Positions 13,486-42,445 of a stretch of DNA of 64,000 nucleotides are shown here, piece by piece. Origin of the DNA: Botryllus schlosseri (taxonomy: Eukaryota); the NCBI GenBank assembly GCA_051294905.1, contig CM119371.1:16804001-16868000 (forward strand). Reading direction: 5' to 3'. The translations under genes were made by a program, and so were the position numbers. A model generated the notes under the pieces. That model did no database searches. It was given only the letters and a program-made list of their open reading frames with translations, and was not told where the DNA came from. The stretch's first letter is position 1. Each line of letters opens with the position of its first letter.

Positions 13486-13757
13486 CTTATTATGATACAA
13501 ATATTGAACGATTTTTGTCAGGCAGAAATTCAAAATGCAACCTCTTTTAAAATGCGCCATGTTCCTAAATTAATATTCTTGGTCTAAAATCGAAATTCGT
13601 TTGATGACCCAGAAAGGGGCATTCATGCATTAACATTCGACGTATCCTGAAGTTAATTCTTAGTGGGCAACTGTTCTCCTGTCCGAGAATCCGACGGGAT
13701 CCATGTATCATCCTCATCTTATTACACGTTTTATAAAATATTTCTCCAATTCCATCA

Positions 13758-14938: not shown

Positions 14939-16742
14939 ATTTTAGGCATAGAATAGCCCAAATGGAGCTTGATGTGATGACGTACCAGTCATCGGCTTCC
15001 AGGGTACGCGCAACCACCCACAAAATGTAAATGGGCCCGCGATCAAAAAAGCCTTAGAACCCGTCATATAATCGGAAGAATTGAGCCCTGTTAATTCATT
15101 CAAGTGTAATGTAATCCCTAAGATTTTTCAGACTCTCTTCTCCTGCTATCCTGGAACAGAAAATCTATCAACGCAACTAAACTCGGTAACGTGCAAATGT
15201 GAGGTGCACTGTGCATATATAATCCAGCCAAAAGTCGCATACTCCTTTTTGCTCATGTACAAGGTGCATATATATTATTAAGTTCTATATATAGTTGATA
15301 CATAGTATGTATATTGTATGCTTTGGCGTATCAGGGTTGGCCAAACCGCATCTCGGGATCCGCATATTGCTCTTTGTATGGTCTCCAGCAGAATTGAAAG
15401 GCCAATATCTCAATTATGTTTATCATCCATATTCATGTCGGAAATGCCTATATTAGAGTTCCTAGCCTCGGAGTCGCGACCCCAACGTGAGAAGGCATTG
15501 CGTATATAGTATATAATATTAATCGGTACCAACGGTGCACACTATCATAAAGTACTGTGACACGTTGAGGACACATAAAGTTGCCGTTCAAAGTTGTTCA
15601 GTGTCGGCAATGATATGGTAATAGTCATTTTGCCTATATATGTATCGTGCGTCTCTTTTTTGCAACACCGGACAATATGCAGCTCCTATGCCGTAACAGG
15701 TTGGCCACCCCGGTATACGGTATGCATACACACAGCGACTCGGCCAGGAAGCGAATAGCGAATTCCCCCCTTCAAATTTTTGATTTTGACTTATTGTCTC
15801 CAAATTTTCGAACGCCCATCCGAAGTTTTCATCTTGGCTTTGTCGGCGTTTATAGTATTGCATCAAGTAATGTAGGTTGAGATGTCGTTGGTAATGCTAG
15901 AATTTACATCGAATCTCAGAATATACATCAAAGAATGAATCCACATTGGGCGAATCACGAAGTCAGCGCCTTGGCTGCATTTCTCTTTTGCGACCACAAA
16001 TATCACAAGGGGTTTTATGAATAAATAGGGATTTGTAACTGTGTTTATCATATCATGATGATTATAACTGTCGAAATGGGAAGGGGCGAAAACGCCGATC
16101 GCTGCGCCGATTGTCGCTATATTTTCGGAATTATCGACTGACAGATACGAAAAATAGTAATCTATATATTTGACTTCAATTAAATTTTGTGTCGTATATA
16201 TCGTCGCTCTCTTCATTGTACACTTCTTCTGATAATTTACCACCTGTAGGTTGAAAATATAATTGTCAGTCAAAACCACATTGATTTGGGAAGGATTTCG
16301 GTATACATATATTCAAAGACACATCAATAATTTGGGTCAAGTATACTAAATGCCCGGAAAAAAAGCCGTGGTCAGTGGGGAACACGGGATTTGAGATGTG
16401 GTGTGATGCAGTATGTATTTATTTATGTTTCACATGGGATGGAATTTGGCCGGGCCTCAAGTGTGTTTGCAGTATATACGGAACAGATGAATTTAAAGCC
16501 CGGAATAGGAGAGAAGGTGCGCTGTCCAAAGAAGTTTATATGGGGTGGCTTTGAGTTTTGACCAATCACGAAGGAGATAATCACATACCTCTCCTCACAA
16601 GGGGCGATAATCATCTACATGAAATGACTACGCATATCCTGCAAATTTATTTACACAGATTTGGCGAGAAGAAGTTACAACATTTTGAAATTGGTGGATT
16701 CGGGAGCTCTTCAGAATGTAATAATTAAATCATAATACCACG

Positions 16743-17282
16743 GTGCAAAAGAATCGCAGGCCTATAACTGCGCTACACGGTCTCACGAGTCATCATATCG
16801 CTAGAACTAAGTTAACTAATTATACAGTAACAGGGAGGATGCGGAAAGTCACCGACTCCCGACCTCAGGTAAGGCTAAACATACCATCAAAAATACCAGC
16901 GAAAGACGACCTAACAAGTACGGACGATGTGGAAAGCCGGGCGGGATCATCAGCCAATTACGATGGACATGCCAAACTCATGGACAGCCAGAATGAAAAC
17001 AATTATACCCACCGGTTGCACGCACTCTGGATAATGGAAAGCTTGTATAAGGTAAGAGAAACAAACTTATCTGATCTGGACACAAGAACCGGACACCTCC
17101 TGATGACTATCATGGTAAACCTTATATTGATATTAGTAATAATCTTTCTTTGTACGCATTATTACCGTAAAAACAAATTTACAAGATATTCTAGGTCAAT
17201 TATACGGCGAAATGATAATAAAAAGTTAGCGACGGTGATTTCATTTCGTGTAAGATCAAATTCAGAAATGAAAGAAGATTAA
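16743..17282 (+). CDS. Possible fragment of a single-pass membrane protein (may be a pseudogene or spurious)
   Basis: 179-aa ORF with a GTG start and one hydrophobic stretch (LLMTIMVNLILILVIIFLC) followed by basic residues; no family recognised. Confidence 0.2.
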   Translation: MQKNRRPITALHGLTSHHIARTKLTNYTVTGRMRKVTDSRPQVRLNIPSKIPAKDDLTSTDDVESRAGSSANYDGHAKLMDSQNENNYTHRLHALWIMESLYKVRETNLSDLDTRTGHLLMTIMVNLILILVIIFLCTHYYRKNKFTRYSRSIIRRNDNKKLATVISFRVRSNSEMKED

Positions 17283-22339: not shown

Positions 22340-22847
22340 TGGGGCTGGGCAAAATGATTCGGGTGCTCGAATCTGAATCGAGTAGTAATTTTAATGATTC
22401 GAGTCGAGTAGTAAAAGACGATTTTTTCGAGTACTGAAATTATACGGTCCTCGCAACTGAAAGTTAATTTACTGGCGAGAATTATAGCTTTGATACTATT
22501 TTCCACTGAGGAAGCCGTGAAACCTTGATTGGCCGTGTTTCAGCGTACCAGGCACAGTTTAAAGCTACGAACGTTACTGGAAATAACACATTTCCGAAGT
22601 CATTATCATCCAACAAAATTGTTAAGAATAAGTGCAATGCAATCGGTATGGTCGAAAAAATACCGAAGCATCTTTAATGTGATGGATATCAGGAATTAAG
22701 TTCTTTGTGGTGGCAGAAAAGGTTCATATTTGGACTTGGACATAGTACATCATGTTGTGACGTCATAATGAGTGATACTCGATTACTCGAAGCATATTGC
22801 GTGATTCAGAGTCGAATCACTCAGGTACTCGATTTTGCCCATCCCTA
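22340..22847. mobile_element. hAT-type MITE
   Basis: TIRs TGGGGCTGGGCAAAAT / ATTTTGCCCATCCCTA; perfect 8-bp TSD GTAATTAT. A shorter relative lies at 24990-25127. Confidence 0.88.
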
Positions 22848-24503
22848 GTAATTATAAGGACTAATCCACTCGATTACGGATTCGGAAATGTACCACTACT
22901 TGAATTGACAACCATCCTTACAATAACAAAAAATGTTACGATACCAAACCGGAAGGTTTGAACTGAACTATATGGGAATGGTGAATGATTTTTTACTCCA
23001 AGGCAGCTCAAACCTCGCCAAAAGCGTTGCCATTATTTTGGTGCGCGGACGGCTCAGTCTTGTCGCGTTAACGAACATGCTTCAAAGTAAAATAATTTCT
23101 TGCTTGATTAATGCAGTTTTTGATATCAGACATACGACAATCCTCGGTTTCCGTTAGTGTATTGCTGGACAGACGCCGTATTCTGAGCAGATGTTGCGGC
23201 CTGAGCGGATGCCGTTGTTCCCATGCTCTACTCCCAAAGGAACAAAATCATCGGCATCTGTTAGGTGAATTGTCACTTGCAGCATCGAGAATGGGGGGTG
23301 TACGTCAAGAGCTAAATGTGATTTTTACACACCATGGTATATGGGACATCCGGTTGGGTGACCACGCTAATACAGTAGAAGCCCTATAGCGTAATGGTGG
23401 GCTAACTAGAAAATTTTCGGACAGCTTTCTGCCTGTCTGGTAATCGCGCCATTAAAGGTTTCCGTTCACTTCTTATTTGCCGTCCGACGGTCGGCTAGCA
23501 TGTCCATTGTCCGCGTTCAAGTCGAAATACGGGCAATTGAATGCAGTCCGTGCCCAATATTGCAGGACCACGACTGACCTATTCAATCAATCTCGCTCCC
23601 CATGACATATATATATAGTCGCTTTTTGTCCTGACATATATATATAGTCGCTTTTTGTCCTGTACTATCTTATTTACCCTAATTCAGTGTGCATTGTCTA
23701 GGCCGAGGTGGGAGTCTGATTCCCGAACCACTTCGACATACTCCTGTCCTACAAACCGATCACGTTTTCATGATGCATCGGACTTAGAGAGTTGCTGGTA
23801 AATCAATAATGATGACCAGAGATGGTCAATAACGCACTTTCTCCTCTTTATTGAGGGAATTTGAATTGGTTTTTGCCTGTTCGTGACTACTTTCTCTGGA
23901 CACCACTCTTATTTCTACTTGAGTAAAGGGCCCGACGTTGCTTCTACTCCAGTAGCGACTGTGACTTTACCACGAAAGACCTTGGAGACTTGTAAACTGA
24001 CCTCCAATAAATAACACAATGCCGAAAGAAATTATCATTACAAGAAATTCAGCAGGCATTGCTAAAGAGACACCTTTGATGACGTCACATTCTACGTGCT
24101 GCTCCCCGTGAAACATGCGACAAAGTCCCGACAATAAATCTGTTAAAACAACAGGAATTACGCGTCTGATATGATAACTAATTCCATTGCCCGACGGTAG
24201 TTGGAAACTGTGTGAAACTGTGTGCGGCAAACAATATTGACAAGGTGTGTTGGTTCTACTTTCACGTGACCTGTTGTTGCATGCAAACGGGGAACTCTGG
24301 CATACTATGCAGGGTGGGAGCAATGGGCTTAGTTGGCAGGGGTGCTTCGCGACTCAAATGGTGGAAATTGCTTTAAAGGGAATGTTTGGAGACGGAATTA
24401 TTGGCGTTTGGTGTAAAAAATCAAAACAAAACTCATTACATGGCTCAGCTTTATGTCTAAATTACATTAAAACCGCTAAAAGCCTTTTAGAGGGGCTTTT
24501 TAA

Positions 24504-24653: not shown

Positions 24654-27086
24654 ATTTCCATTAATGGCCGTTGGTAGGACATCCATTTCCAGTAAATTAT
24701 TCATAGGGAATCCAAAAATAAAACTAGAATGCCTTGCCCTTAAAGAATAAAAAGGGAATAATTGATTTAACATCTACTTTGAAAAACCTCTATATAAGAC
24801 CACCGACTGTGGCGTTGTCACGACAGTACGCTGGAAGTATCTACGGGGGCAGGATGAAAGATAGCTATACGGGCTTACTTATGGTGTTAGGGCGAAGCTA
24901 TGCCCGAAGTTAGAGTGACTTTCTGAACACTAAACTGTAAGTCTATATTGCTGACGGGGGCCTTTGTTGTATTTAAGACATGCTATTAATGGGGCTGGGC
25001 ACCATGATTCAGGTACTCGAGACTGACTGTGACATCACAATGAGTGATGTTCAAACGCTCGTTCGACTTGAACATAATGCATGATTCTGAATTAAATCCC
25101 ACAGGTTTTCAATTTTGCCCAGCTTTAGCTAGTGGCTATTAGTGGGGATAACAATAAATAAATAGGATAACTGGTATCTGAATCATACAATAGGGACGGC
25201 CTAGCTAAGTAATAGGTGGGGCCATGCACGATAGGAACCATACTCCACATACCTTATCTGTGGTTTGGAGGGAACGCCACTCTCTGTAATAGTAAAGGCG
25301 TTCACGATCAATTGGGTTTTGTTTCCGCACCACGTACGAAGAAATATTGGCGTTTGACACAACAAAATGTTCCTCGAAGTTATCCAGGACTAAAATAACA
25401 GGGAGAGGGTGCCCCTTCACATCGCTCGGGTTTGTGAGATCGGCAAATGCATTCCAGGTTCACCAGTCCCGTCTTGTGAGGCCTGGAATCAGCGAGAATG
25501 CGCAATAGCCCAAACGGTGGGTTGGTGATTCTTCGCTAGGTTCCTGGTGCTGCAGATTTTTTTTCAGCATTGAAGTCGTGAGTGCGTTACGAAATTCCCG
25601 GATTGAGGCCACGCCTATCTGGAAGTGTTGGATCAGCGGGAGGCTATGTCCAGTTCTGAGATATCTAGTAAAGAGCACATGGTTGGGAACCGACTTGGAT
25701 AACTGGCTAATTCTAGTGGTCTAATTTCACTAAATTAGAGTAAAATACAAGTGATCTAATTCTGATCTAATTTAATATTTTACTGAAAATGCTTTGTCTG
25801 CAGCACTTTTGCGCTAAGTCAACAAGAATGTCCCTCTTGCATAAGTAAATCTGTTGCCAACTGCTACCGCATTACTTTAACGTTACATCGTCCATGCGAT
25901 CAGGGTGGTAATTGTGACGATGTTAGTACAACGCCGAAGCCGCTTCGGGTTTCTGCTAGTGCGGGATAAAAATGGTAAGACACATGCAAACAGGTGAGTG
26001 TAGAAGGGTCAAAGCTAGGTGTACAGACGTTGAGCGTACTCATGCTCATGGGAATGCACAGTAGTTTGATATCAATTGAACTCAGTAAAAAAAACTGCGA
26101 TGCCCCAATCCTAATACTAGCCTAATCTGAAAAGACTGAAAATTTTCTGGTTGGCCAAGCCTTGTTGAGGATTCAGTGATGCTCTTACAGTTGAACTGCT
26201 GGCCTAATCCGCACGTAAATAATAACACATTGAGAATTAATATCAGAGCGGAAGTTACCTAGGGGGAGTGCCATAGTAATTAACTTCTAATGAATTCCTT
26301 AGGGGTAAAGGAGTTTCTTTACCTAGCTACTTTACCTGCGTTTTTTTTTTTTTTTTTTTTCGGTAATGCCGGTGCGTTGGACAGGTAGTGTTTTACGGGG
26401 GTCTGAGAGTTGTAATTGTTTCCCAATAACTACGGTTGCAGGTAGCACTGAATGCATAGAATTTTTTTAGCCAAGCATACATAGTAGCAAGGTTATCAGT
26501 GCTCTGCGTTCGGACACCGTATTGATAGTATTTAAACCATTTCATGATAGCTGGTTAATGTGCTTTGGGAGCGCAATTTTCATAATAAAGAAAGGAACCT
26601 ATAACAAGTTCGTTACAGTTGATACCTCCACAGATGATAATAATTTACTTAGCACTTACTCGGAAATTATATTTCCTGCTATTATTAAAGTGGCATTGCA
26701 TTTCTGGACTGTTACCTGAAGAGAGCAGTATAAGTCAAACATAATTGCAATGATAATCCCTTATAATATTTGCCTTTTTTGTGCCAGAACATATTCTCGT
26801 TACAATTTTTGCTGTTACACTGGGGATCTGTATTGATGCGGCAGATGCGAATGAATGCTGACCCCTTGTGGATTAGATTTATGAGAGTGTCGAAGCAGTA
26901 TGTGGACTGATTTGGTTTATGTTTTCTTTTTATTTAACACTGTTCAGCGGAGGGCTCTGTTAAAGGGGTTGGATTGAGCATACACAACGCTTACATCAGT
27001 GAAGGTAAGAAATAGTGTCAATTGTCAGCAAATAATTGGACAAGCAGATTAGTACATATATGATACCTGGTATTGTTTCTCTAAGC

Positions 27087-28376
27087 CAGGGGTCGCCAAC
27101 TCAAAATGGGTTGCGGGCCACTTTTCAAAATTCCTAGAGGCCGCGGGCCGCATGACATCACTATCGAGATTAAAGTAGGCAACGCAGTTTAACAACCACG
27201 ACTGATAACTCTACGTTAGTACAATGCTGTGCTCTCTAGCATGGGCGACGGGCATAGTCTCCACAAAAGAAATAATATTTTATTGAGCAAACACAAATCC
27301 AACAAAAAATATCAAGATCATCAATTTCATTATATTTTGAACTATGAGCTGTGCACAACAACACTCTGTAGCGCAAATAAAACAGGGGTGGCCAACCTAT
27401 TTCCTATTCACGGCCGCATTTCAATTACTCAAATAGTCTGCGGCCGCATTCCGGTGCATAGTCGTAGTGAACTAACTGGGGCAAAATGGAAAATACCCAC
27501 GTTAGACTGTCCATGTCCATCGCCGGTACACTCCAGACTAATATATTTACGCATATCGATTTACTGTGCGCACCGAAATCGTCATAATAAAACGAGACAC
27601 GCGGATTAGACCTGCAGTCGCGCGAAGCGCGAAAAATTTTTCAGGTTCATGAGTGAATTTCGTCATTAGATATTGGTATAGTTTCATATATCGCGGTAAA
27701 ATATTTATCCTTTTTCGGCCAATGTGATCTGATTCAGCGGTAGAGATGATGCAGGGATTGTCTTCGAAAACGTAGGGAAGTTATTAATGCTGTGCTGCAT
27801 CTTGGTTGGGTCAATTCTTATTATTCCCCTCTGTTGCATGCAGTTATTTCTTGACCTCCCATCAGATTTGTCGAGAGTCAATTCGTAAATTCAAGTTGCA
27901 TATTGACGGCCGCCAACATACCTAATTGAATTAAATGTCGACAGCCGCCTAATTTTCCTTCTACTGTCGCAGATTGGCCACCACCGGATTAAAAAAAATC
28001 GATATTTGGGTTAGCTAGACACGGTAGTCTACTTGCTGGAAAACGATCTCTTCGTAAAGCATGGTCTTTTGGAGAGCCCGAAGTCGTTTTTCACGGGTCT
28101 AGATCTTGGCAGTGGTGGACCATTGCACGTCAAGGCAATATGCCCATTCATACCAGCTAATTGTCCCTCCATGGAATGATATTATCATGCCGAAGCCGTA
28201 TATCAGCAAGTGAGGAATAGTGATATTGGACACAGCAGAATGGCTTACTTTGAAGAACAACAAAAATATCAATTTCAGCATTTCAAAATGCTTCACTAAG
28301 CGTTCTTCGAAATTTTTCCAAATCAGGCCGCGGGCCGCAAAATATGACCTCGCGGGCCGCGTGTTGGTGACCCCTG
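27087..28376. mobile_element. Charlie-like hAT non-autonomous element with a nested second MITE (about 27383-27986)
   Basis: TIRs CAGGGGTCGCCAAC / GTTGGTGACCCCTG; perfect TSD CTCTAAGC. The inner element starts CAGGGGTGGCCAA. Confidence 0.9.
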
Positions 28377-28559
28377 CTCTAAGCTGTCATTGTACGTAAC
28401 GAAGTAGAATTTCACACTGCTTGACAATTGTAGTGGGTTTCTGATAGATTGGCATAATTAGTATTTGGAACAGAGCTAAGATAGTGATTACTTAATCTCA
28501 GTCATTAAAAAATGCCTATATTGGTAAGGATAGAGACTAATTGAAATTTTATTTGCCAT

Positions 28560-29520: not shown

Positions 29521-31967
29521 ACGCCACGAAGTTATATACCATTAAGCATTGATTAATTACTGAGGAAGGTTAAATTTACGCTGAAACTGCGTCACGGTGA
29601 TTGATTGCTTCATACCAATACCGGGGTTTATATATTATCAATGGTATCACCAACCATGACTTACCCGGCGTGAGGTTTCGAAAATCAAGTCCGGCCACTG
29701 TTTTTCAGCTGCATTGAAACTCACTCCTAATTGGTAAATATAGAGCCATTTTCTTTGCCTGAATGCCAGTAGATGCAAGCTCACGCTGAATAGACGTCCA
29801 TACTGTGGTATCTATCTGGATTAAACCGTAACAAGACCTTTATAGGCTTAAAAATAAACTGTATTGACAAACTCCAACTCATCAGCAGTTTATAACCCTT
29901 CTGAACAGCATGCTGCAGCCTGTTGATAACTGTCAGTTTTCTGCACTATTATAAGGTAATTTGCATATTAGGTCTTAAATTCTAAACAATAAGGTAGCCT
30001 CATCTCATTTTTAGTAAATTCAGTGTTACCGGTGATTTTACCTATTTGTAGAGGGCATTTTTACCTACGTTTGTTCAAAGCTCTGTGTTTTTGAGGGAGG
30101 AGAGAGTATTTTATTTTTAACTCAGTCTGGACTAGGCAGCAGATAAGACAGCAATAATGGCGATACAGAGTACACTGCATGATATTTGTTATGATAAGAT
30201 GCGATCTCACAATATTCTCATGCAGATTACTGAGCCTTTGATAGTGGAAAAACACAATATTATGAGCATATGATGTTCCACCGATGGTCATAAATCACAC
30301 GTCTTTGCATTTAAGCCAAAAAATATGCTTAACAATATTCAGAACTGACGAAAGATTGCAGATAACTGGATAATTTTGCTAATTGCTGAATATTCTTGTT
30401 ACGTTATGGTTGGTAGTCAGTTCATTTCAATTGTATAGATCTTAAATCACTCATGGGCCCAAACTCCAAAAACTAAAGCAATGAGATCTGGATCTTCAAG
30501 TATTACGAGTTTTGAAATCACCAGAGTACTTTAATTGTTGAACCCTAGTGGCCTTCTGAGTTGTAGGTATATAAGCATTAGGGCCAATTCTAACTTGGCT
30601 GAGTATAGTTCAATAGTGTGAGGCTACTTTTGAAGACATGATATACACAAATAATAGATAGTCACCGTTTTGTTGAAAACCTTTCATTAAGATGATATTG
30701 AGTGTGTATGAGAGAGAGAGTAAGTACTGAAAGTAGAAGTAGAACTAAACGGGTGTGAAGACCAACTCCAAACAACGACCACCTATGTTGTAAGAGAACC
30801 ACCGTGTGTTCATTATGAATAGGTATGGTAATCATCTTGAAATAATACGCCATTTATTTATTTATTCATTTATTTATAAAAACTTGTTCGATATGATGAA
30901 GTATTGTTGAAGCATTTCTTTTTATTGTATAAATATATTTCTTGAGCTTGGGCATAGAGCCGATATTACGGTGTTCGCTGCTTGGGGGTAGTGCCTGGTG
31001 TCGGCTAGCGGAACCGTCTATGGCGCGACCCAATAGCTCACAACAATGAGATAAGTAACCCTTTTTCATTAAAACCGTAGAACATCTTAAGAATCACCTA
31101 TGAAAATGAATTCTTACCTTGTTGGACTGCATCCAACCGCAAAGTGATGTGAAATTGTAATGATGTATATAAGGTATATTTTTGTGTGAGTCGTACGTTT
31201 GTCCCTACCCTATGGGGTTGGTAATGTAGTAATGAGGTATATATGAAGTAGATTGTGAGGAAATCTCACTTTTTGACACCCATGGTTACGCGAGTAGACG
31301 CTGCATTTCAGCCACGATAGGGAGGAAGGAGGGACAAATATATTGTCGCAAACTATGTATATAAAGTGTTACAGTATGTATATATATAAGCTTAAGCACC
31401 CACGAATAAAATTGATAAAAGAATTTTAAAATTAAATAAAAACTTGTGGCGGATAAAACATACAATAAGAAAATTTGCCATGTGAAAACATAGTATTCAA
31501 AAATCAAAGAAAAAATTCATAAAATATCTAAAACGAATATCTAATGATAAAATGCCCTTGTGGGTTACCAAAATGTTATCTAATATAACTTAGATAGGAT
31601 ATGAAGTTGGAGTCGGACTTGGGATTGGATTTGGGCTCGGAATCGAATTCAGACCCCGACGTGAACCATGTGATCTGAAAACTTTTCGTGTATAAATTTA
31701 TGATTAATTTACACCAATTATGAAATATTAGTAGTGATAACATGTGTCCACGATTACGCTGCAAGGAATCCGAGATCGAGCACTCAGTCTGGGTACCACA
31801 AAAATATATGTCTCTCGATCAAGGCTGAAATCGCTGAGATCACTGAGATTCCTGATGATGACACATACGTTATCAGGAATATCAGAGTATCTATGTGACA
31901 TTGGCCGATGAGTCTAATTTAAGGCTCCGCCATTGGAAACAATGGTATGACTTCGCCACGAGTGACA

Positions 31968-32301
31968 GCACAGGACTGGAAATGATAGATTATCCAGAGA
32001 AGCCTGGAAGACTAAATTAATAGGCACAGGACTGGAAATGCTAGATTATCCAGAGAAGCCTGGAAGACTAAATTAATAGGCACAGGACTGGAATGCTAGA
32101 TTAACAAGAGAAGCCTGGAAAACTAAATTAATAGGCACAGGACTGGAATGCTAGATTAACAAGATAAGCCTGGAAAACTAAATTAATAGGCACAGGACTG
32201 GAAATGCTAGATTATCCAGAGAAGCCTGGAAGACTAAGTTAATAGGCACAGGACTGAAAATGCTAGATTTTTCAGAGAAGCATAGAAAACTAAATTGATA
32301 G
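31968..32301. repeat. Six tandem copies of a 55-56-bp unit (GCACAGGACTGGAAATGCTAGATTATCCAGAGAAGCCTGGAAGACTAAATTAATAG)
   Basis: Copies start at 31968, 32024, 32080, 32135, 32190 and 32246. Confidence 0.95.
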
Positions 32302-33004
32302 CTATGACTGATAAAGTCTTAGGGTACACTCAATGATTTTGCATCCCTATCTGGTTTAATTAAACTATGTTTAATGAAGAAATAATATATAACCTGAATA
32401 AATAGATATATATGATAGCCTATATGTGTAGTAATAGGGATGTATATATAATCGGAATAAAATAGTATGGTAATTAGGTTAGAAAAGACCCTAGAACACA
32501 TAGGAAAGTGTACTACAAACAATATGAACTTGAAAATGGCAAATAAACTGGCCCCATCCACACATTTGTTTTCCGAAACAGATGTGTCGATGATCAAGAA
32601 CCACGTTAGTCATATGTCCGACCTGTCGACACATGCGTTTTACGAAGCGGGTGTGTCGACCGATTGTTATATCGATATCTGTACAAGATTTATGACAATG
32701 TTATTTTAACGAGTTAATTTTTGTGCTATAGACGTAGGCATAAATTGCGTCATGAAGCACAAGTGCCATTCTCATTTTCGAAATTATAAAACAGATCAAA
32801 TACGATATCAAGATATTCTACACACCCGTGTAGTTAAGCTATCGAATGAATCGATGACGGGACATATTAATTCATTCCGCACGAGTTTTTCGAAAGCTTG
32901 TTCCGTCAAGCACTAATGTACCGAGAGGACAACTAGTTATACAAGAAGATGGAATCACCACTCCATGATATCGCGATTCTCCCGGACAAAACGGCAGCTA
33001 TATT

Positions 33005-33690
33005 CCACCTTGCAATCGCCGAGCTGAATTTTATAGATTGGTGACATTTTCGTCCATATCAAAAGAAGCTTCAGTATTGCCAACTGATATGACGGCCGCG
33101 AGATTTTATTGGTCTGGATACAAAGATAGAGTGAAGTGTTCCAGCTGCGGTGTAAACATGGACTACGCCTGAAAAGCGAGCAAAAAAACCCTCACCGGCC
33201 GCCGAAATAGGAACGCAAATACGCGTCGCTCGAACCAGATTGTCAGAGGAAGATGCCAAGAAGATGCAGTTGGACAGCATAAGATTTAGCAGAAGGCACA
33301 CAGAAAAGAGCCACCAGCAGACGATCAAATATTCATTTTACTGTGAACGATGTCGTACAAGACCCTTTGATACTACTCGATATAGTGCCAGTCGATTGAA
33401 ATACACAAACTGCGCAACAGTCAAAGAGTAGACTGGGCAACTCTGTTTATGCTAGAAACAGAATGGGGACGCCATCAATAATAGAAATTGCATGTGTTGG
33501 AGAAATTGCTGAGAATCTGATGGTTATACAAGAAACCATACTTTGCCAACAATGCAAGAATAATAGGAGTGAAATTACCCTGATCCCCTGTGGACATCTG
33601 GGTCTGTGTCAAGAATGTTCGTCCGATGCTGAGCGCTGCATATTCTGCAATGGGAAAATATCGCAAAAGATCAAAGTGTATGGAGCTTGA
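33005..33690 (+). pseudogene. Intronless inhibitor-of-apoptosis (IAP)-like gene: BIR domain plus C-terminal RING, disrupted
   Basis: 33026-33172 translates EFYRLVTFSSISKEASVLPTDMTAARFYWSGYKDRVKCSSCGVNMDYA*, matching the BIR pattern E..RL.TF/GFY/D.VKC..C; the TGA sits where Trp is expected. 33541-33690 translates LCQQCKNNRSEITLIPCGHLGLCQECSSDAERCIFCNGKISQKIKVYGA, an IAP-type C3HC4 RING. The BIR part is absent from the supplied ORF track. Confidence 0.85.
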
Positions 33691-33923
33691 CGGTGCAGGC
33701 AAGACAAACGTATTTCTGTCTAGTGGACTGGAAACAAAGTTGTGTAGTGAAGCTAGTTCGCTTTATTATGTTCAAATACTATAATTACTATGTTCTTGAT
33801 AATTACTATCAGGTTGCTTTAAATGGCGCTAACATTTTCATGACCTGAACATAGTTAAGACTTAATGGACATTTATTATATGAATAGTAAGTTGTCGCTG
33901 CATAATTGCATTTGTAGTTGACT

Positions 33924-33933
33924 GAGGGGGAGG
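33924..33933 (+). other. Candidate polypurine tract (GAGGGGGAGG)
   Basis: 10-nt purine run downstream of the IAP stop and about 1.1 kb upstream of the PBS. Confidence 0.35.
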
Positions 33934-34577
33934 TCATATTACTACGTATTGAATCATTGCGTGATATACTGGTATGTGTATTGTTGTTCACACACATATT
34001 TGGGTCGCCGTTTAATCGAGTGGTACATGATTAATCGATATTTGTTTGTTTTGTGTTAACCGTATTGATGTAAACTATTAATAATAGTGCATGACGATAG
34101 CAGGGTTTGACTAAGTGAGATTTGTGACTAACTACCGTATATGTAAATAGCTGGGCCCTTTAGGGATAACTAGGGTGTATGTGTAAACGACATTAAATTA
34201 GGAAATTACTTGTCCTTGACAAGTTGTTTAATGTCACAAGTAACTAAAATAAATACCCCTTCCTATAATAACGTCACAGATTCTCCACAAAGTCAAACCT
34301 GTTACAATGAGTGTTTATATTATTTTCTGTTGTGCCGTCTCGTACAGTAAGGCGTCATAACCGACCACGCCTTATGTTAGTGTCGGGACCCTTCACCCTA
34401 ACGGGATAGAAGTTTAGGATTCGTGGTATATCAGATCTATGATCTGTGAGACACGGTGCATACGAATGAATAAAAAGCTTAAAACACCAGTACCATCGAA
34501 CCCAGAGATATAGTAGATTGTGATCAAAATACTATTGTAATTGAGTGTTGTGTAATGACACAATATTTCATGAATGA

Positions 34578-34691
34578 ATTTTTCGGCAGGATAGGCCGTC
34601 ACATGAACTATATGTGTAAACCAACCTTGGAGCTGCTTTTCGGCAGGACAGGCCGTCGCATGAATTATATGCGTAAACAGACCTTGGAGTA
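34578..34691. repeat. Two copies of a ~57-bp unit in the putative LTR
   Basis: TTTTCGGCAGGA(T/C)AGGCCGTC(A/G)CATGAA.TATATG.GTAAAC..ACCTTGGAG occurs twice. Confidence 0.85.
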
Positions 34692-35072
34692 TTGAAAATG
34701 TTTATTAATCGTGCATGTTGATGAATAGGTTTAGATAAAACTTGTAATATAATTGAAGCATGTTTACCAATTTTATAAGGTTTTACTCATAGGAACCTCA
34801 TTCCTCTTTGCATGGTTATAATTGGAGTATTTGGTTGTATTAAGGTTTAGCTTACTAGTTATACCAGTGTAGTTTTAAGTTCTGGACCTGAAGGTCATTG
34901 ACTGATTGGATCCAGCTGCTGCTACCCTTACCACTGCTTCGATCACCATTTGTGGATGCTACAAGGTCACAACATCAACACAGATAAGGAAAACCAACAC
35001 TGTGAAGTAAAATCGAACCAAGTGTAGACTCTCGCAGTAACAAGCGTTATTGGAGCTGCACTATAAACGTAT

Positions 35073-35093
35073 TGGAGGCACCAAGCTGGGATT
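35073..35093 (+). promoter_or_regulatory. Primer-binding site complementary to the tRNA-Thr(AGU) 3' end
   Basis: TGGAGGCACC-AA-GCTGGGATT versus TGGAGGCACCGCTGGGATT expected from a metazoan tRNA-Thr (tRNA sequence recalled from memory); 2-nt insertion; lies 440 bp upstream of the gag ATG. Confidence 0.75.
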
Positions 35094-35124
35094 ATTACTT
35101 CCGGTGTAGCACGTTGACCTATAA

Positions 35125-35493
35125 ATGTGTTCAAAGACGACCATCGTTAAAACTGCATTGGTCGTGGCCCTGATTGCGTCTGTAATTTCATTGTTAGTTA
35201 CGTTGTCACCAGTATATCTACATTTGGTACCGGGGTTTTCTTCAACTACAGTTCCGATTGGAAACGGAAGACCTAACAACGGAGTTACAACATCGTCCCC
35301 AACTCTTATTGGCTCGCAAAACATATCTGCATGACGCCAATTTATCATTACTAAAGACTCGCTTTCTAAACTTTTGGAGTTCGAGACTAACGACCACAAC
35401 TCATCACTCGGAACAACACCGCGGCCTACCTTGGACGACCCGACCATCTCCAGCGTAAAGCTGGCCCTCGAAAACTCTACTACGGGTCTATAA
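35125..35493 (+). CDS. Leader ORF with an N-terminal signal/anchor helix and Ser/Thr-rich tail, in frame with gag; internal TGA at 35332
   Basis: Hydrophobic helix ALVVALIASVISLLVTL; the frame stays open after the TGA until TAA at 35491-35493; NIS, NSS and NST sequons. Confidence 0.55.
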
Positions 35494-35514
35494 ATCAAAT
35501 CTATTACTATTGCC

Positions 35515-38457
35515 ATGCGAAGAATCTTGAAACTATTTAAAAAGAAGAAATCAACGGAGGCATCGGCGGAGCTAAAGCAGGGAATCCGACTGCTTAAATA
35601 TACCCAAAAGCGTCACGAAGATGTGCGAGACCAAGAGAGGCAATACGCTAAAGATGTGGCCGACCAGACAAGAGTCCTACAGGAGGTCAAAACGACCCTG
35701 CCTGAGGCAGTGAAGGAGCTGGAAAAAGCAAGAAAAGACGTCCGGCGGGCTCAAGCTGACCTGAAGGCCGTTTGTGACGCCACTTCAAAAATTACTGGAA
35801 AGGTTTCCCCTGACGTATTAAACGAGATCTTGCAGACTGAATTCGAGCTGGGTAAAGCCTATACGCAGGTGGTAGGAGAGAAACCGCCTCCTCCTCCCGC
35901 CCTGGCTGTAGTACCCTCAGCGCCTCCTCCGGCCTATGATCCACCAGCTATCCGTATGGTCAAGGAGACTCAACCTATGCCCACCTTCACCGTGAAAAAG
36001 GGGTTGCATTGTCATACAGTAACGGCGGTCTACCCTACGCACCCAGACGCGAAGGCTGATGCCCCATCTCGACCGACACCGGTTGCCCGTTCACTGATGG
36101 CTCCAACCTTTAGAAAAAAAGGGAATATGCACCCGGCGATGAAGACCAAAGATGCTGCTAACACGCCCATGGCATATTGGACACCTACGGGAGTGGCGAC
36201 AGGAGGACCGATGAGACTGGAACGCGAAACAGACTCCGAATTGGACAGTAAACATCTGCCCTCATTCCGGAAACTGGTGTCGAGACCTCGAGATGCGAAG
36301 GGTCAGCGGCGGGACATTGACAAGTTGGGTGATGTTGGGACACGAAGTAGTCGGGCAAGAAAGTCGCCGAGCGACGATAAGCACGTCATTTTCCGTGGAG
36401 AAGGGGAGGAGTATGATGAAGGAGACTCGGAGGGTCAACCAGAAGATTCTGATTCTGAAAGTTCGACGACATCCCGACTGCAGAGGCTTGTACAGCAAAT
36501 GGAATCCACACAGGACACCCTCCTGGAAGCTACTCGAAATGCTTTCCTTGAAGATAGTGGCGCTTCCCGAGAAATTCTCCGTGGTCCCGAGTATTACGAT
36601 GCGCGCTATCTTCCAAATGGCCGGGGGAATCCTGGAATGCCGCGTTTCGCATCTACTCCAGATGACAGTGATGATGGCCGCCCAATTCAGCCGCTCTCGC
36701 GACAGATGGAGGTAATAGTAAACCCAACGCTAACTACACCTGTTAGATTTCAGTCCGAAAAGGAAATGATACAGTTGATAATGGATCCGGGGGACATGCC
36801 TCTTCTCAAATGGATGGAGAACACAATGAGGCGAATTCACCACGGTGAAGGTAATACTGATGCTGATGTAATATTGATGAATGCAATGCAAAAGAAATTG
36901 AAGAATGCGGGGCGTTACAAACAAGCTGATCATCTTGGAAACTTCTTCAACACAAACTCAGGAAACGCCAGCTGGGAATCCGTTATGAGGTCGCTATCAC
37001 TTTCCAACCCGCAAGGAATTGTAAACAAGGAAAGAATTCTCAACGATTTCCGAAGAAATTATCATTGGGAAGATGAACCCCTTCCTCTACTTAACAGCGC
37101 CCTGAAACAACTAGAGATAGACATGGACGATCTAGTTTTGGATAATCCGGACGGGCTGCGACTCTTCCGCAATTTGAGACAGCAGCTGCCGGAAGCGCTC
37201 AGGTTGATTATTCGAGGGTGGGAAGAACACACCTGGCGGAAAGTCGCAGAAGAACTACAACTGTTCTGGAATTCGGAATTCCAAGATGAACAGGAATCGA
37301 GTCCGACGTCTCAGAGAACCCGAAGAACGCAGAAGAACGAGTCGGCCTTGCCGCCTGTACATATCTATAATGTACAGCCAGCTGGGCCTGTGGTACATAG
37401 CTATCCGACTCACCCTAACGGAGATGGACAACGGGAAATACCTCTACAGCCTACTTCCTCGTCATCACATCTTCCGCCGGAATTCGACGCAACGCCACCT
37501 CGACCTCCCAGAATCATCCCTTTACAGCCTATTAAGAATATAGGACAGGTTACACAACTACGCCGAAATCCTGTTCGCAACGCAAGATTAAACCGGCCTC
37601 CTACTAACGTATCGAGTGGTATCGGGCCAGGCAGACGAGCGCAAACTACTAGGAGAATGCTGGAACGAACACAGAATGTACAAGGCGCCTCTGCTGGACC
37701 CGATACCCAGCCTCTACATATTTCAGGGTCAGCACAATCCGGTCAACAACCAGGAACTTCAAGCCAAAGAAGCCCACGGACAGAAGGAACACAAGATTCT
37801 GGAGTGGGACCAGATAATACGCAAATCACTCCGTCAAACAGTCAGGAGGCTCGCCACATCGCGGAAAGCCAAGGTGAGAGGTACAATTTCCTTAGAAATG
37901 ATAATATATTTGCCCCATTAGGTTTGTATTTGAATCCTTCCCAGGGCCAGGCCCTTTCGGTATGTTATTATTGTAAGGCTCCCGGACACCAATCCCGGAA
38001 TTGCATTGCCAAGTTTATCCTTTGGCTAAACAATGAGGTACTCTCTAGAGTTAGCGAATTGGGGTGGGCAATCCATAAACGGGTCCGACCGGTACCGCAG
38101 CGTATTAAGGAATCCGCTGAACGCAACTGGCGTCCGTTCCTTACTACCCATGGATTATTGACGATTTCAGACCTTGATCGGTATCTCATATCCCATGGTT
38201 CTCCCCCGTTGGCAGAAAGAACGAATCTATGTGAGGCCTATTATGATAGTAGACCTAAAAACAGAGATAGAACCCACTGGCACGATAGGGGCCAATGGGG
38301 TCCCAGGGGGCCACCCGCGAATCCAATTCCTAATAACGGCCAAGTAAACTGGATTGCGCCTTCATATAGACAAGAGCCGCACCAATATGCCACCTCTTAC
38401 TGGACAGATGAGGAATTAGAACGCTTACGCGTTTCAAAAAACGGTTGGGGGCGCTGA
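35515..38457 (+). CDS. gag: Gag-like polyprotein, 980 aa
   Basis: Intact ORF with a GCCATG start, basic N-terminus, coiled-coil-like region, PSAPPPAY (35914-35937), a helical capsid-like middle, and the CX2CX4HX4C knuckle CYYCKAPGHQSRNC (37963-38004). Confidence 0.88.
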   Translation: MRRILKLFKKKKSTEASAELKQGIRLLKYTQKRHEDVRDQERQYAKDVADQTRVLQEVKTTLPEAVKELEKARKDVRRAQADLKAVCDATSKITGKVSPDVLNEILQTEFELGKAYTQVVGEKPPPPPALAVVPSAPPPAYDPPAIRMVKETQPMPTFTVKKGLHCHTVTAVYPTHPDAKADAPSRPTPVARSLMAPTFRKKGNMHPAMKTKDAANTPMAYWTPTGVATGGPMRLERETDSELDSKHLPSFRKLVSRPRDAKGQRRDIDKLGDVGTRSSRARKSPSDDKHVIFRGEGEEYDEGDSEGQPEDSDSESSTTSRLQRLVQQMESTQDTLLEATRNAFLEDSGASREILRGPEYYDARYLPNGRGNPGMPRFASTPDDSDDGRPIQPLSRQMEVIVNPTLTTPVRFQSEKEMIQLIMDPGDMPLLKWMENTMRRIHHGEGNTDADVILMNAMQKKLKNAGRYKQADHLGNFFNTNSGNASWESVMRSLSLSNPQGIVNKERILNDFRRNYHWEDEPLPLLNSALKQLEIDMDDLVLDNPDGLRLFRNLRQQLPEALRLIIRGWEEHTWRKVAEELQLFWNSEFQDEQESSPTSQRTRRTQKNESALPPVHIYNVQPAGPVVHSYPTHPNGDGQREIPLQPTSSSSHLPPEFDATPPRPPRIIPLQPIKNIGQVTQLRRNPVRNARLNRPPTNVSSGIGPGRRAQTTRRMLERTQNVQGASAGPDTQPLHISGSAQSGQQPGTSSQRSPRTEGTQDSGVGPDNTQITPSNSQEARHIAESQGERYNFLRNDNIFAPLGLYLNPSQGQALSVCYYCKAPGHQSRNCIAKFILWLNNEVLSRVSELGWAIHKRVRPVPQRIKESAERNWRPFLTTHGLLTISDLDRYLISHGSPPLAERTNLCEAYYDSRPKNRDRTHWHDRGQWGPRGPPANPIPNNGQVNWIAPSYRQEPHQYATSYWTDEELERLRVSKNGWGR

Positions 38458-38479
38458 TTGATCCGGTAAATCAGCTCCC
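38436..38479 (+). promoter_or_regulatory. -1 programmed ribosomal frameshift signal (gag-pro)
   Basis: In-frame A_AAA_AAC heptamer at 38436-38442, a 5-nt spacer, then the stem GGGG(C)GCTGATT / AATCAGCTCCC; the protease ORF is in the -1 frame. Confidence 0.85.
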
Positions 38480-38954
38480 TGACACAATATTACCCAAACA
38501 TGTTAAAACTGTACATAATGCTTCGTTACCTTTATTTACATTCCTTGATTCACCGGACAAATCGCTACAACCGGATTTCGCGGAATTATTCGGTGGACAA
38601 CTTTTATACCTAGTGGATACAAACACAGACACTAAATTTCTTGCCGATACTGGCAGTATTCCCAATTTGATTATGAAAAGCGTAGTAAAAAATAAATATC
38701 CAAAAAGCTGGGCTGAACGACAGCCACTTGATATGAAATTGCGCGGAATAGGAGGGTCGTCCCGAGTCGACTCCCTAGTAATAGTACCTCTTGACGGACT
38801 GCAAGTTCCATTTGCAACTGGCAAAGGAGTTCCTCTTAATATAGTGGGGCTAAAATGGATTGACAAAGTACAACAATTACCGAGTATAGATTCTGAATTT
38901 AAAACTCCGTCTACTGATAATGAAGGATTGTCATTGGCAACACTACATGTATGA
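38445..38954 (+). CDS. pro: Retropepsin-type aspartic protease, expressed by frameshift
   Basis: FLADTGS active site, LRGIGG flap and NIVGLKWI helix motif. Confidence 0.88.
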   Translation: MGALIDPVNQLPDTILPKHVKTVHNASLPLFTFLDSPDKSLQPDFAELFGGQLLYLVDTNTDTKFLADTGSIPNLIMKSVVKNKYPKSWAERQPLDMKLRGIGGSSRVDSLVIVPLDGLQVPFATGKGVPLNIVGLKWIDKVQQLPSIDSEFKTPSTDNEGLSLATLHV

Positions 38955-40999
38955 CTTTACGCGATAAAAAGGACGGAACCGGAATTGGAAACAGTCCTTG
39001 CAAAACTGTGACCAAGGATGGGTTGGTGAAAGCTGCAGAACAGCAGAGCGTCGAGACGGCAAGGGCCGCTGGCGCTGGCGTCGAAGTGGCAGGGGCTGCT
39101 GACGCAAACGTTGGGTCGGTAAACACCGCTGACGTTACAATAGAAAAGAGAGACTCTTTGGGTGCCGAGCAAGGAAGGCCTGCTGACACCTGCCAAAATC
39201 GCGCCGAGCGAGGAAGTCCCGCTGACGCAAATGGAGTTCAAACTAATGAAGGAGGCTCCAATGATGTAGGCAATATGAGCGTCGAGTTGGCAAGGGCCGC
39301 TGACGCACACGTTGGGTCGGTTAACACCGCTGGCGTTACAAGAAATCAAAGAGACTCTTTAGGTGCCGAGCAAGGAAGTCCTGCTGACACCAGTCTAATT
39401 CGTGCCGAGCGAGGAAGTCCCGCTGACGCGAATGGGGGTCAAACTAATCAAGCAGACCCCGAGGATGTAGGCAAAGCTGCTTGTCCAGATGACGGTAAGG
39501 CATCAGTGCGGAATGATCCCACGACAGCTGCCGTCATGCCTACTTCACTCAACAATAGTTCCAACGCAGCTACTACATATTTTCCGGATATGAGTCCGGA
39601 GGAGACTAAAGAGGAGTCTGGAGATTTTAGGATGCAAGTCTCTCCAGAACAAGGACCCCCGTCGAATCAAAGTTCCGGCGGCGTGACGTTAGGCGTGGGC
39701 ACGCGCCGAGATCAGAGGTTAACACGAATAGGTAGGGAAGTCCCGCTGACGGAAAAAAACCTCGTCCTCTCCCCACCAACTAAAAAATCCCGATTATCGC
39801 ATAAGCTAAACAGAAGGATGAACGGTTTGGTAACCACGTACGTTCTACAAGAGGGAACCAGTGCTGAGGTAAATACTGAACTTGAGGTCCTGCGCCCACA
39901 ATCAATTGAGCTAGCAAAATTGCCATATACGCCCCTTGATTTGACTACGCCAGAAAATACCATTATCGCTGACAACGTATGGTCAGAGGACTATAAACCT
40001 TTTGCGACTGAGCTGGAAGATCTGCGATGCCATCTTAGCGTGCCCCATTCTATGAAGTACAAGTACGACAGCGAACTAAAAGACCCATCAACTAAGCCAT
40101 TTGTCTCTGGCCCATCTAATGTGAAAGGTGAAAGCCATACCAAGTATTTACATGAAGCTGTAACCATGTGGTCAGCAAATATAGAGTCATGCGCGGTAAA
40201 ACCAATAACGGAGAAGTACCAGCAGCACATAAAAGAACATGGCCAGGCTGATAGAAAAAATACAATAGCTATGGAAGCCTACATTTCTCTCAGCACAAAG
40301 ACGGCCGAAGATAACTTACTTCTCTTACGAGTTGGGTTTAAAATAAAGGAAGTGATTTATCTCAGCACGATGCAAGTATTCGCGTCAGATGGATTGTCCC
40401 GATCCTATTGGATAGGAATGGCAGTAGGAGATGACGATCCCCGTGCTGCTACTCCGAAAAGGGAAGAAGTAACCCATATTTTGAGTGCATATCAACAAGA
40501 AGGGGTGCAACGAACATTAATGTACCAATTCGGGCATGCAGAGTGCCAAGACTCGACAAATGGATACCACCGATTGGAATACATACATGCGATTGTACAA
40601 GGCAAACTGAAATCAATTGTTGAAATGACCGAAATAAAAAACGTCATGATAAGTTACGATAGGGCTGTAGTCACGAACTACGGTTTGGCCGCGACACACG
40701 AACATACGAAAGGGTCGATTCCCCGCTACCGGGAGTACGGAGGTGACGGTATGTTATGTCACATGACGACTGAATTGAACACAAAAGTTCTCATGAACGA
40801 GGGGATCAAAATGATAAACAGAAAGTTTGTTCATCCTAGTAAGTCAAAGACGACAAAGATGCTAGGCCTGAAGATTGTTATCAGCATGAATGCGGCGGAC
40901 CTGATTACTGAAGGTGTGAAATTGCTACAATCTCCAAATCCCGATGTTGTGCTGTGTACAGGGCCAATACCGGTGAAACCAGTGCAATTGGGAAATTGA
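38951..40999 (+). CDS. 682-aa ORF: repetitive disordered N-terminus, unassigned middle, C-terminal Tpt1/KptA-like domain (about aa 519-678)
   Basis: Motif order LMYQFGH / NGYHRL / YDR / LAATHEHT / LCHMT / EGIKMINRKFVHPS / ISMNAADLITEGVKLLQSPNPDVVLCTGPIP parallels Tpt1 LS..LRH / DGWV / K.R / IRA.QGHS / .YHGT / EGL..M.R..VHLS / ID......G......S.N.V.L....P. Confidence 0.75.
   Translation: MTLRDKKDGTGIGNSPCKTVTKDGLVKAAEQQSVETARAAGAGVEVAGAADANVGSVNTADVTIEKRDSLGAEQGRPADTCQNRAERGSPADANGVQTNEGGSNDVGNMSVELARAADAHVGSVNTAGVTRNQRDSLGAEQGSPADTSLIRAERGSPADANGGQTNQADPEDVGKAACPDDGKASVRNDPTTAAVMPTSLNNSSNAATTYFPDMSPEETKEESGDFRMQVSPEQGPPSNQSSGGVTLGVGTRRDQRLTRIGREVPLTEKNLVLSPPTKKSRLSHKLNRRMNGLVTTYVLQEGTSAEVNTELEVLRPQSIELAKLPYTPLDLTTPENTIIADNVWSEDYKPFATELEDLRCHLSVPHSMKYKYDSELKDPSTKPFVSGPSNVKGESHTKYLHEAVTMWSANIESCAVKPITEKYQQHIKEHGQADRKNTIAMEAYISLSTKTAEDNLLLLRVGFKIKEVIYLSTMQVFASDGLSRSYWIGMAVGDDDPRAATPKREEVTHILSAYQQEGVQRTLMYQFGHAECQDSTNGYHRLEYIHAIVQGKLKSIVEMTEIKNVMISYDRAVVTNYGLAATHEHTKGSIPRYREYGGDGMLCHMTTELNTKVLMNEGIKMINRKFVHPSKSKTTKMLGLKIVISMNAADLITEGVKLLQSPNPDVVLCTGPIPVKPVQLGN
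39080..39472 (+). repeat. In-frame 201-bp (67-aa) tandem duplication inside ORF3
   Basis: VEVAGAADANVGSVNTAD... starts at 39080 and VELARAADAHVGSVNTAG... at 39281. Confidence 0.92.
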
Positions 41000-42445
41000 A
41001 AATACTGCAGGGGGTCCGTCATTTGTGCACAGAATGATTAGTTTGTACTTCCCAGGAATTTGGCTGCACAATGAATTCAAACGGACAAAACCTAAACCCC
41101 GTAATTAGATATATGCTGAATCAGCAGGAGTGCATTTAATACAAGAGAATAATTGATGAGAAAAAAAGGATTCAAGTTAGAGTGTTTCACATGAAAGAAA
41201 TCGATTATTTCATGGGTAAACATGAAATGGGACGTGTTGCACATGTTCCGGGAAACCAGGTGAATAGTATATGTGTTCCAATAATTTAATCATTTCGAAC
41301 TCAATCACAGCTTAGCCGTATAATTCCCAAGTGAGATCAATTCTAAAATCCTTTAAAATATGTTTGCTATTTTAAAGATAATTTCAAGTGAAATTTATAT
41401 GTTTGATTCATGATATAGTCGTTTGTTAGAGAGACTCATCAAGTTTATTTATATGCATGAAACAGTGTAGATCTCGAAAAAGCTACTTTTTGAATGGATT
41501 CTTAACGATTTCATCTACAGCTGGCAGATTGCATCGTGTCTTATATCACCTAATCAACCTTCTGATTGGAATGATGAATAGTATGATGTTTGCGAAAATT
41601 TACACAACTTTAAAATTGCAATTCCAGCCGTTTTTCGGATTTGTTTCTTATAGGCGAAAAAAAGTGCAGAAACCTGCGAAAGTGTTTTTAGTAATCATGC
41701 TCTAAGACACCACAAAATAATTATTTGTATACCGTAAATGCCATATCATTTATGAATTCCAAATATATCATAAAACAGCATCAAATAATCAAATAATCTG
41801 TTTTTCATTGATTGATAACATGATATCGACTTTTAGATTAATACGCACAACGCACTATGTACAAATACTCGAAATCGATGGTCTGTAAGTACCCAATTAC
41901 AATTCCAAACGCACATCCTATTTGCATCATATCCTTACCACTTCTAGGCAGAAATACTGGAAATGGCGGTGGCGGTGGAGGTGGAGGTGGATGTGGTAGA
42001 ATACGTGGAGATGGATTTTCTTCACTGAAGCCTGTTACATACGGATATGGATATTTACAGCATCCAAAATGGTAAACCTACGGTCATTATATAACCACCA
42101 TTTGTTATCTCACTCGCAATGTAACCGATGCCTGGTTACACAATATTAGCGACACCTTTATCAGTTTCATGACCTTACTCTGATGTCGTAGACTTTGGCT
42201 TAACATGAACAGCCCTTTTACGACGAGAGAAGCTACTCCAGTATATAAAACATACCACTAATATATATGTATACATCTGGCGTACGGAAATGTCAATGTC
42301 TATTATCCCGGCACATAAAAAGTGGTCCATAAAAACAGCAAGCTGTAGTTTAACAACGATTCGGCTTAAGTGATATTCTCTTTGGTGTACTGTTGGACTC
42401 CTTTTAGCAGGATCGGATGAGGCGGAGGAGATGGGATATCGACAT

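Follow-up and report, generated by a model that had tools for sequence, protein, structure and literature searches.

An inhibitor-of-apoptosis pseudogene in Botryllus schlosseri lies within a Merlin-ended, integrase-less gag-pol element

What carries a decayed inhibitor of apoptosis (IAP) gene that sits on the strand of a gag gene, a short distance upstream of a possible primer-binding site? The question arises in a 64,000-nucleotide stretch of Botryllus schlosseri DNA (the window: contig CM119371.1 of assembly GCA_051294905.1, positions 16,804,001 to 16,868,000, forward strand). A first-pass annotation had read the gene as an intronless BIR-RING relic and proposed an anti-apoptosis accessory gene carried by a retroelement, in U3 or at the 3' end, or alternatively an older, independent retrocopy. 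As found, the relic is a pseudogene with one misread motif, and it leads to an unusual element family.

The BIR overlooked by the open-reading-frame track is real: PF00653 matches window 33,035-33,163 on the + strand with a score above cut-off (E 6.1e-6), over profile positions 1-47 of 70 only. The matched stretch covers just the first half of BIR1 and is without the zinc-binding His and Cys residues. The IAP-type RING is likewise real (PF13920, E 3.5e-11; 33,541-33,666, with a stop at 33,688-33,690) and lies in a different frame; both domains were recovered from three-frame translations, and both share the + strand of gag. The relic probably begins at an ATG at 32,949. Compared with an open IAP relative from sister subfamilies, the half BIR1 is 42% identical and the linker plus RING 40% (E 1e-24 for the latter). 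The relic is too short for introns, and the open relative is one uninterrupted frame, in agreement with the intronless reading. The primer-site-like stretch at 35,073-35,093 begins 1.38 kb past the RING stop, close to the ~1.4 kb annotated. A supposed second, degenerate RING (CERCRTR...TNCATV, 33,342-33,422) matches no Pfam family at E<=0.1 and was rejected, since it is an off-frame reading of linker DNA that, in another frame, belongs to the alignment with the open IAP linker and RING.

The IAP region is not single-copy. It recurs at at least 13 loci with 90-100% identity (best 40 of 107 candidates scored), and the same gag lies downstream at 12 of them, as linkage to gag and protease would predict; at the 13th, the retro module is diverged and decayed and the right end is again the same. 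At 6 of the 13 loci the BIR half has also been lost by a common deletion. A 20-kb region was examined at 10 of the 12 other IAP loci, and neither the window nor any of these 10 subfamily copies holds a complete zinc-ligand BIR in frame with the RING. The relic is more decayed than gag, as had been noted, with pairwise pN/pS values of 0.35 to 2.7 (pooled 0.66, the pairs not being independent) against 0.15 for the capsid region. Alone, it is an ordinary pseudogene. The IAP does travel with gag and protease as mobile cargo, but it is broken in 11/11 subfamily copies examined and is therefore no working accessory gene in the window subfamily.

The carrier of the relic is a 24,946-bp element (window 16,334-41,279) whose inverted ends start with GG and which is flanked by an 8-bp target duplication. 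Its features, in window coordinates, are as follows.

16326..16333, no strand: left 8-bp target-site duplication (AATAATTT), read from the sequence of the element flanks.
16334..16357, + strand: left imperfect terminal inverted repeat with GG start; boundary common to copies E, G and X, aligned to the right end.
16628..16720, + strand: Merlin transposase remnant, first 31 codons, the rest deleted; 87% identity to the open Merlin frame of copy E.
16,658, + strand: putative splice acceptor CAG/A within the Merlin remnant, from sequence.
16725..17282, + strand: C-terminal relic of a Thr-rich, membrane-anchored cargo protein; the frame is longer in copy H.
22340..22850, no strand: nested insertion of another high-copy repeat, by repeat comparison.
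27080..28378, no strand: nested insertion of another high-copy repeat, missing from the other copies examined.
31968..32301, + strand: 56-bp tandem array whose copy number varies among elements.
32949..33690, + strand: IAP pseudogene in three frames, by Pfam and alignment: half BIR1 (33,035-33,163), remaining BIRs deleted, linker and RING (33,283-33,690).
33342..33422, + strand: the supposed second RING, an off-frame reading of the IAP linker with no domain, by Pfam and alignment.
34543..34953, + strand: RNA pile-up in which an adapter marks a cDNA end before 34,821; candidate R-like region with promoter/poly(A) function, from RNA reads.
35073..35093, + strand: primer-binding site for tRNA-Thr(AGT), with a 2-base insertion in the window copy; copies A, B, E and H pair with the tRNA end over 19 bases.
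35125..35334, + strand: short frame ahead of gag and in phase with it, beginning with a hydrophobic, signal-anchor-like segment; no family match.
35515..38457, + strand: gag, open frame, with a capsid-like domain (~36,712-37,314) and a CCHC zinc knuckle from 37,963, by Pfam and fold.
38412..38954, + strand: aspartic-protease-like frame, DTG at 38,646, split from the remaining pol by a frameshift in the window copy, where it has no Pfam match; the relative P0033 has PF00077.
38924..40999, + strand: pol remnant in the third frame; deletions near 40,137-40,169 and 40,329-40,341 took most of the reverse transcriptase (RT), the YIDD motif and RNase H.
~40,505-40,996, + strand: degenerate Tpt1/KptA domain ending the pol remnant, from sequence.
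41256..41279, - strand: right imperfect terminal inverted repeat with CC end; same sharp end in 10/10 other copies.
41280..41287, no strand: right 8-bp target-site duplication, from sequence.

Similarity among copies stops at a single base on the right (41,279, in 10/10 other copies) and at 16,334 on the left. The inverted repeats are imperfect, with 14 of the first 24 bases paired in the window and 17/23 in a sister element, and all four elements with both ends determined (the window element, copies E and G, and a 40,140-bp sister) have their own 8-bp target duplications. Merlin transposons are described in PMC8101967 as having inverted repeats of at least 24 bp that start with GG and 8- or 9-bp target duplications, with one family whose ends are very imperfect. 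The elements here share the GG-starting (imperfect) ends of ~24 bp, the 8-bp duplication and a DDE_Tnp_IS1595 transposase with D, D and E. In copy E this enzyme is an open 327-aa frame just inside the left end (PF12762, E 8e-15); the three motifs are found in copies E and C12, and the enzyme is deleted in the window copy. A direct repeat of more than 100 bases, local tandem arrays aside, is absent from window 14-44 kb, and no LTR pair was found in 10/10 other copies over the 20 kb examined in each. The carrier is thus a Merlin-bounded element and not an LTR retrotransposon. With neither an LTR pair nor an integrase it has no U3 in the usual sense, and the proposed placement of the IAP in U3 or at the 3' end of an LTR element becomes improbable. 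The window copy, without transposase, RT or RNase H, is non-autonomous and moved in trans.

The family departs from the Merlins of PMC8101967 in its size of 14-40 kb, its one or two transposase genes, its gag-pol module with a primer site and its host-type cargo; the term 'reverse transcriptase' is absent from the main text of that paper. Its transposase has two N-terminal CxxC pairs, with no Pfam match to a zinc finger domain at the N-terminus, whereas the Merlins described in PMC8101967 are without such a finger.

The retro module is best preserved outside the window. In copies E and H and in the sister element, pol consists of protease, RT and RNase H followed by a Tpt1/KptA domain, and the right end lies within ~300 bases. 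RT and RNase H domains are recognized in copy E and the sister and are mostly deleted in the window; a protein search with the window's deleted pol tail gave no match, and its single-sequence fold reached a pLDDT of 30. A genome search with RT-RNase H yielded at least 92 matches (89 of 1,420 candidates scored), of which 68 covering at least 339 of 479 residues were kept and 24 shorter ones dropped. Most copies have open pol frames of 1,066-1,324 aa. A Tpt1 match stands directly behind pol in 65/68 kept matches, as judged by eye. This domain matches PF01885 (E 4e-11 and 1.2e-8) as well as PDB entries, and the motifs Arg-His...Arg...Arg-x-x-x-His, which we take to be its catalytic residues, are invariant in 5/5 open domains and altered in the window. 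No integrase was found in the full pol of copy E or between pol and the right end, and in a weak test, judged by eye, 0 of the best 150 of 1,389 integrase candidates lay <=10 kb from the 68 pol matches; one short pol match outside the 68 (C94) has an integrase match 6.3 kb downstream. The pol frames scanned contain no tyrosine recombinase. Two ENA proteins and one metagenome contig carry the same integrase-less, Tpt1-ended pol at 38-56% identity, and six integrase-less rows form one group in an RT tree of 15 rows with long branches and without named references. Searches of viral contigs returned no RT relatives. The best solved-structure match of RT-RNase H, in a PDB ranking that is not a phylogeny, is 8r0s, 'Enzymatic polyprotein' (E 4.5e-17), presumably the cauliflower mosaic virus enzyme.

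The gag zinc knuckle falls just under the cut-off (E 5e-4). The capsid region is predicted to fold with a pLDDT of 85, and the top 8 of 48,161 chains matched by the model are all retroviral or retrotransposon capsid domains, at Z 5.8-6.6, below the tool's secure level; Foldseek gave no match at E<=0.001. These results are suggestive of a capsid-like fold. Two of the 10 gag relatives looked at carry the name Styela clava. Between copy E and the sister, dN/dS is 0.026 for RT (dS 1.55), 0.06 for RNase H and 0.26 for Tpt1, while the protease gives 0.04-0.12 and the capsid 0.05-0.19 in diverged pairs. Over whole gag the ratio is 0.15-0.48 in 27/28 pairs and 0.84 in the closest pair, the window and copy I. 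By these substitution ratios RT, protease and capsid are under purifying selection. The gag-frame reading upstream of gag (window 35,125-35,493) is open in copy H up to a single stop before gag, and its signal-anchor-like start can be likened to that of glyco-Gag.

The primer site pairs with the 3' end of host tRNA-Thr(AGT) plus CCA as a 19-base complement in copies A, B, E and H. An exact 17-base site occurs at 36 loci, against 1 for a reversed control, and at 16/36 a full RT-RNase H follows 4.5-4.9 kb downstream. In the largest subfamily (95-100% to the query) no such site turned up within one mismatch, a pattern with a G variant gave 0 matches, and no purine tract stands out as a plus-strand primer. 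Four-fold sites display no strand bias. The 20 exact sites without a full RT-RNase H behind them point to a large non-autonomous class.

Merlin and pol are linked well beyond this subfamily. A same-strand Merlin match lies <=45 kb upstream or <=3 kb downstream of 57/68 kept pol matches, compared with 0.6% of random places; the linkage is seen in 8/10 pol matches only 56-63% identical to the query and is kept down to 57% identity. Among the 11 pol matches without Merlin, two are on small contigs, one is copy H and four are the most distant copies (45-47%). In the most distant pol family (45%; L055 200-904, - strand, and L056), Tpt1 is followed by an open 235-aa frame without a Pfam match in both cases examined. 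Elements range from 14 to 40 kb, and less damaged relatives carry the Merlin transposase, an open IAP, gag and pol. In 7/68 kept matches Merlin stands 1.2-1.3 kb behind RT-RNase H. In the one such copy examined, the Merlin frame starts straight after pol ends, and next to it comes the cargo frame found behind the left-end Merlin in copy E (77.6% nucleotide identity); set against the left end of copy E, this gene order is therefore a circular permutation. Copies are also mosaics, their identity to the window alternating between ~66% and ~99% along one copy. In a single case, copy D (C13:14.22 Mb) switches at window 34,844, beside the adapter-marked RNA end, to a diverged, decayed retro module.

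Three Merlin frames 54-61% alike have CAG/A exactly 17 bases before the same codon, a common position which suggests that Merlin is expressed by splicing; a long pol-Merlin fusion protein was sought and not found, which is weak evidence. A 40-kb subfamily has two Merlin transposases ~42% alike (C5:27,008,043 and 27,032,535), the second just upstream of the IAP. The first cargo gene after Merlin (L052 1,423-2,199; L044) has a hydrophobic, signal-like start and no Pfam or Atlas match, and a Thr-rich, membrane-anchored frame lies further on; this cargo is a candidate surface glycoprotein.

RNA reads came from one single-cell run sampled at ~3%, with 1,461 reads mapped over window 29,200-41,500. 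Depth reaches its maximum, 214 on the + strand, within 34,543-34,953; across the IAP relic it is 0.7-1.6, and across gag 0. Contig runs X2 and X17, which may represent DNA, were left out of the expression evidence. Only 85/1,461 reads are >=99% like the window copy, and most stem from related copies. RNA ends cluster at ~34.8-34.95 kb, just upstream of the primer site, and 53 reads carry an adapter before 34,821, which may be a library artefact. The pattern fits, without proving, transcripts that both begin and are polyadenylated within a single region upstream of the primer site. With one such region and a conserved primer site, full cDNA could come only from a circle or a head-to-tail pair, which favors copying through a circle.

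We therefore consider a reverse-transcribing element that is copied through a circle and inserted by Merlin, to which we assign a probability of about 0.5. From the anatomy, linkage, selection, primer match and permutation, all seen directly, we infer each step of its cycle. The retro module would be a working part of this cycle. The Merlin enzyme would excise the element, whose ends would join into a circle; transcription from just upstream of the primer site would go round the circle and stop in the region where it began, so that the RNA would be terminally redundant, like that of caulimoviruses. This RNA would be packaged by Gag, RT primed by tRNA-Thr would make DNA, and Merlin would insert the DNA at the joined ends, replacing an integrase. 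An open IAP would keep the host cell alive meanwhile, like viral IAPs, and phosphate ends of nucleic acids may, speculatively, be processed or capped by the Tpt1 domain. Copying in this way would place the IAP close to the RNA's 3' end, which would partly rescue the idea of a 3'-terminal accessory gene. Several observations count against the circle: no primer site was found in the largest subfamily, the four most distant pol copies have no Merlin match, four-fold sites lack strand bias, a plus-strand primer tract of purines does not stand out, the capsid Z-scores stay below the secure level, the single-cell run has no depth over gag, the adapter-marked end may be artefactual, and 40-kb elements far exceed usual RT templates (PMC6431247). 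The permutation could equally come from head-to-tail insertions at the DNA level. No circle, end-to-end junction or end-spanning RNA was seen in the mapping, which covered 29,200-41,500 and not both ends.

The most serious alternative to weigh is movement at the DNA level only, by Merlin cut-and-paste, with the retro module kept for a side role such as particles that move element RNA or DNA between cells, recombination of cDNA into resident copies with exchange of modules, or capture of host mRNAs like that of the IAP. We regard it as possible, if rather unlikely. The ends and duplications are purely of Merlin type, sizes up to 40 kb suit DNA transposition, and the cargo IAP has no introns, in contrast to chordate XIAP-like genes, in which the last BIR is split (PMC13159474); the mosaic copies, including the switch in copy D, agree with it and fit a circle too. 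Yet where there is a single primer site without a second repeat, priming by tRNA would give short DNA only, which makes it hard to explain why the site is exact at 36 loci and why RT and RNase H are under strong selection. A different DNA-borne history, in which a Merlin element received an insertion of a Ty3/gypsy-type retrotransposon that shed its LTRs and integrase and became a passive rider, is largely refuted and very improbable. Nested insertions are common in the window, gag dN/dS reaches 0.84 in the closest pair, and the most distant pol copies lack a Merlin match; against this stand the long open pol frames in most copies, the RT ratio of 0.026 between Merlin-bounded subfamilies, the Merlin linkage down to 57% identity, and the decay of a true passenger, the IAP relic, at pN/pS 0.66 versus 0.15 for the capsid.

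An LTR retroelement whose U3 or 3' end contains the IAP would account for the real primer site downstream of the IAP, for the RNA ends between them and, by analogy, for the BIR domains borne by planarian Burro LTR elements (PMC6431247). The missing direct repeats and integrase, together with 8-bp duplications at inverted ends, make it improbable; a version of it would survive if the permuted subfamily had long LTRs that span the IAP position. That an older, independent IAP retrocopy stood beside a later landing of the element was suggested by the greater decay of the IAP relative to gag. This idea is refuted by the copy analysis and keeps a negligible probability: the relic lies inside the target duplication and has the same neighbors at at least 13 loci, and its open relative is cargo of sister subfamilies.

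In those sister subfamilies the IAP is an open, intronless frame with three BIRs and a RING, in which, as read from its sequence, a complete zinc-ligand BIR stands in frame with the RING. At least 25 full-length matches were found at 65-100% identity, 23 of them stop-free (best 81 of 556 candidates scored), and in 25/25 among the matches listed pol follows downstream of the IAP in the same orientation. The clusters closest to this IAP consist of eukaryotic XIAP/cIAP-like proteins, and the viral contigs searched held no relatives. It resembles XIAP/cIAP-type IAPs in its three BIRs and C-terminal RING and differs in being intronless and element-borne and, in the window, a pseudogene. Chordate XIAP-like genes divide the last BIR across three exons (PMC13159474); because the cargo copy is intronless while these counterparts have last-BIR introns, it is likely a retroposed host gene. 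The IAP is dispensable, since a 14-kb copy has Merlin, a primer site and pol but no IAP match. At the IAP position, sister copies L046 and L047 have another decayed frame with weak likeness (E 0.014) to the BIR1 end.

The Merlin-ended, integrase-less gag-pol family is real and unusual. Ty3/gypsy elements, especially planarian Burro (PMC6431247), share the order gag-protease-RT-RNase H, the tRNA primer site, giant size and, in Burro, BIR cargo. In the family here gag, protease-RT-RNase H and the tRNA primer site are present, whereas an integrase is missing, as is an LTR pair in the window and 10 copies, pol ends in Tpt1, and the ends and 8-bp duplication are those of Merlin. Caulimoviridae (PMC11363490, PMC8256270) have an RT-RNase H without integrase, and the proposed cycle is modelled on theirs; the differences are the animal host, precise transposase-made insertions and the lack of a movement protein. 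Teratorn of medaka, a piggyBac-herpesvirus fusion for which circle excision has likewise been proposed (PMC5601938, PMC6431247), is also a transposase-carried, virus-like gene set that includes an apoptosis inhibitor, but its transposase belongs to a different superfamily and its partner is a large DNA virus rather than a reverse-transcribing module. A search by title and start of abstract, with Repbase and subscription journals, which may contain such elements, outside its scope, found no Merlin-bounded gag-pol element and no Tpt1-bearing pol. DIRS and Ngaro are gag-RT-RNase H elements in which a non-integrase enzyme, a tyrosine recombinase, acts on circular DNA without making an 8-bp duplication; the element here has that duplication and a Merlin transposase.

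The split between retrotransposons and DNA transposons rests on the integrating enzyme, and here a Gag-RT module under strong selection is tied to Merlin. If copying through a circle is true, it would add a further route of retroelement integration beside integrase and tyrosine recombinase, and an animal parallel to pararetroviruses with an RT template far larger than usual. The family also shows one way in which IAP genes multiply in this genome, and it places a Tpt1 domain in a retroelement polymerase. More tentatively, and with less than even odds, it may be a new animal reverse-transcribing class, possibly an endogenous pararetrovirus-like tunicate virus of up to 40 kb that would be Gag-packaged, circle-copied and Merlin-integrated, with Tpt1 on its polymerase and a membrane glycoprotein and IAP as accessories.

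Three further observations concern related sequences. Many Tpt1/KptA matches, including the genome's two best, cluster at C3:19.31-19.43 Mb, which may be a host locus that expanded or the place from which the pol domain came. Nested inverted repeats at window 11,600-13,500 form a foldback structure of ~1.9 kb. A second IAP-bearing repeat occurs at dozens of loci as uninterrupted BIR frames of 382-419 aa, arranged in inverted pairs with 1-15 kb between the members (for example C7:5,234,135-5,241,096 and C4:18,247,137-18,249,761, from a BIR search with 663 candidates), and these pairs look as if an IAP occupied both arms of a foldback element.
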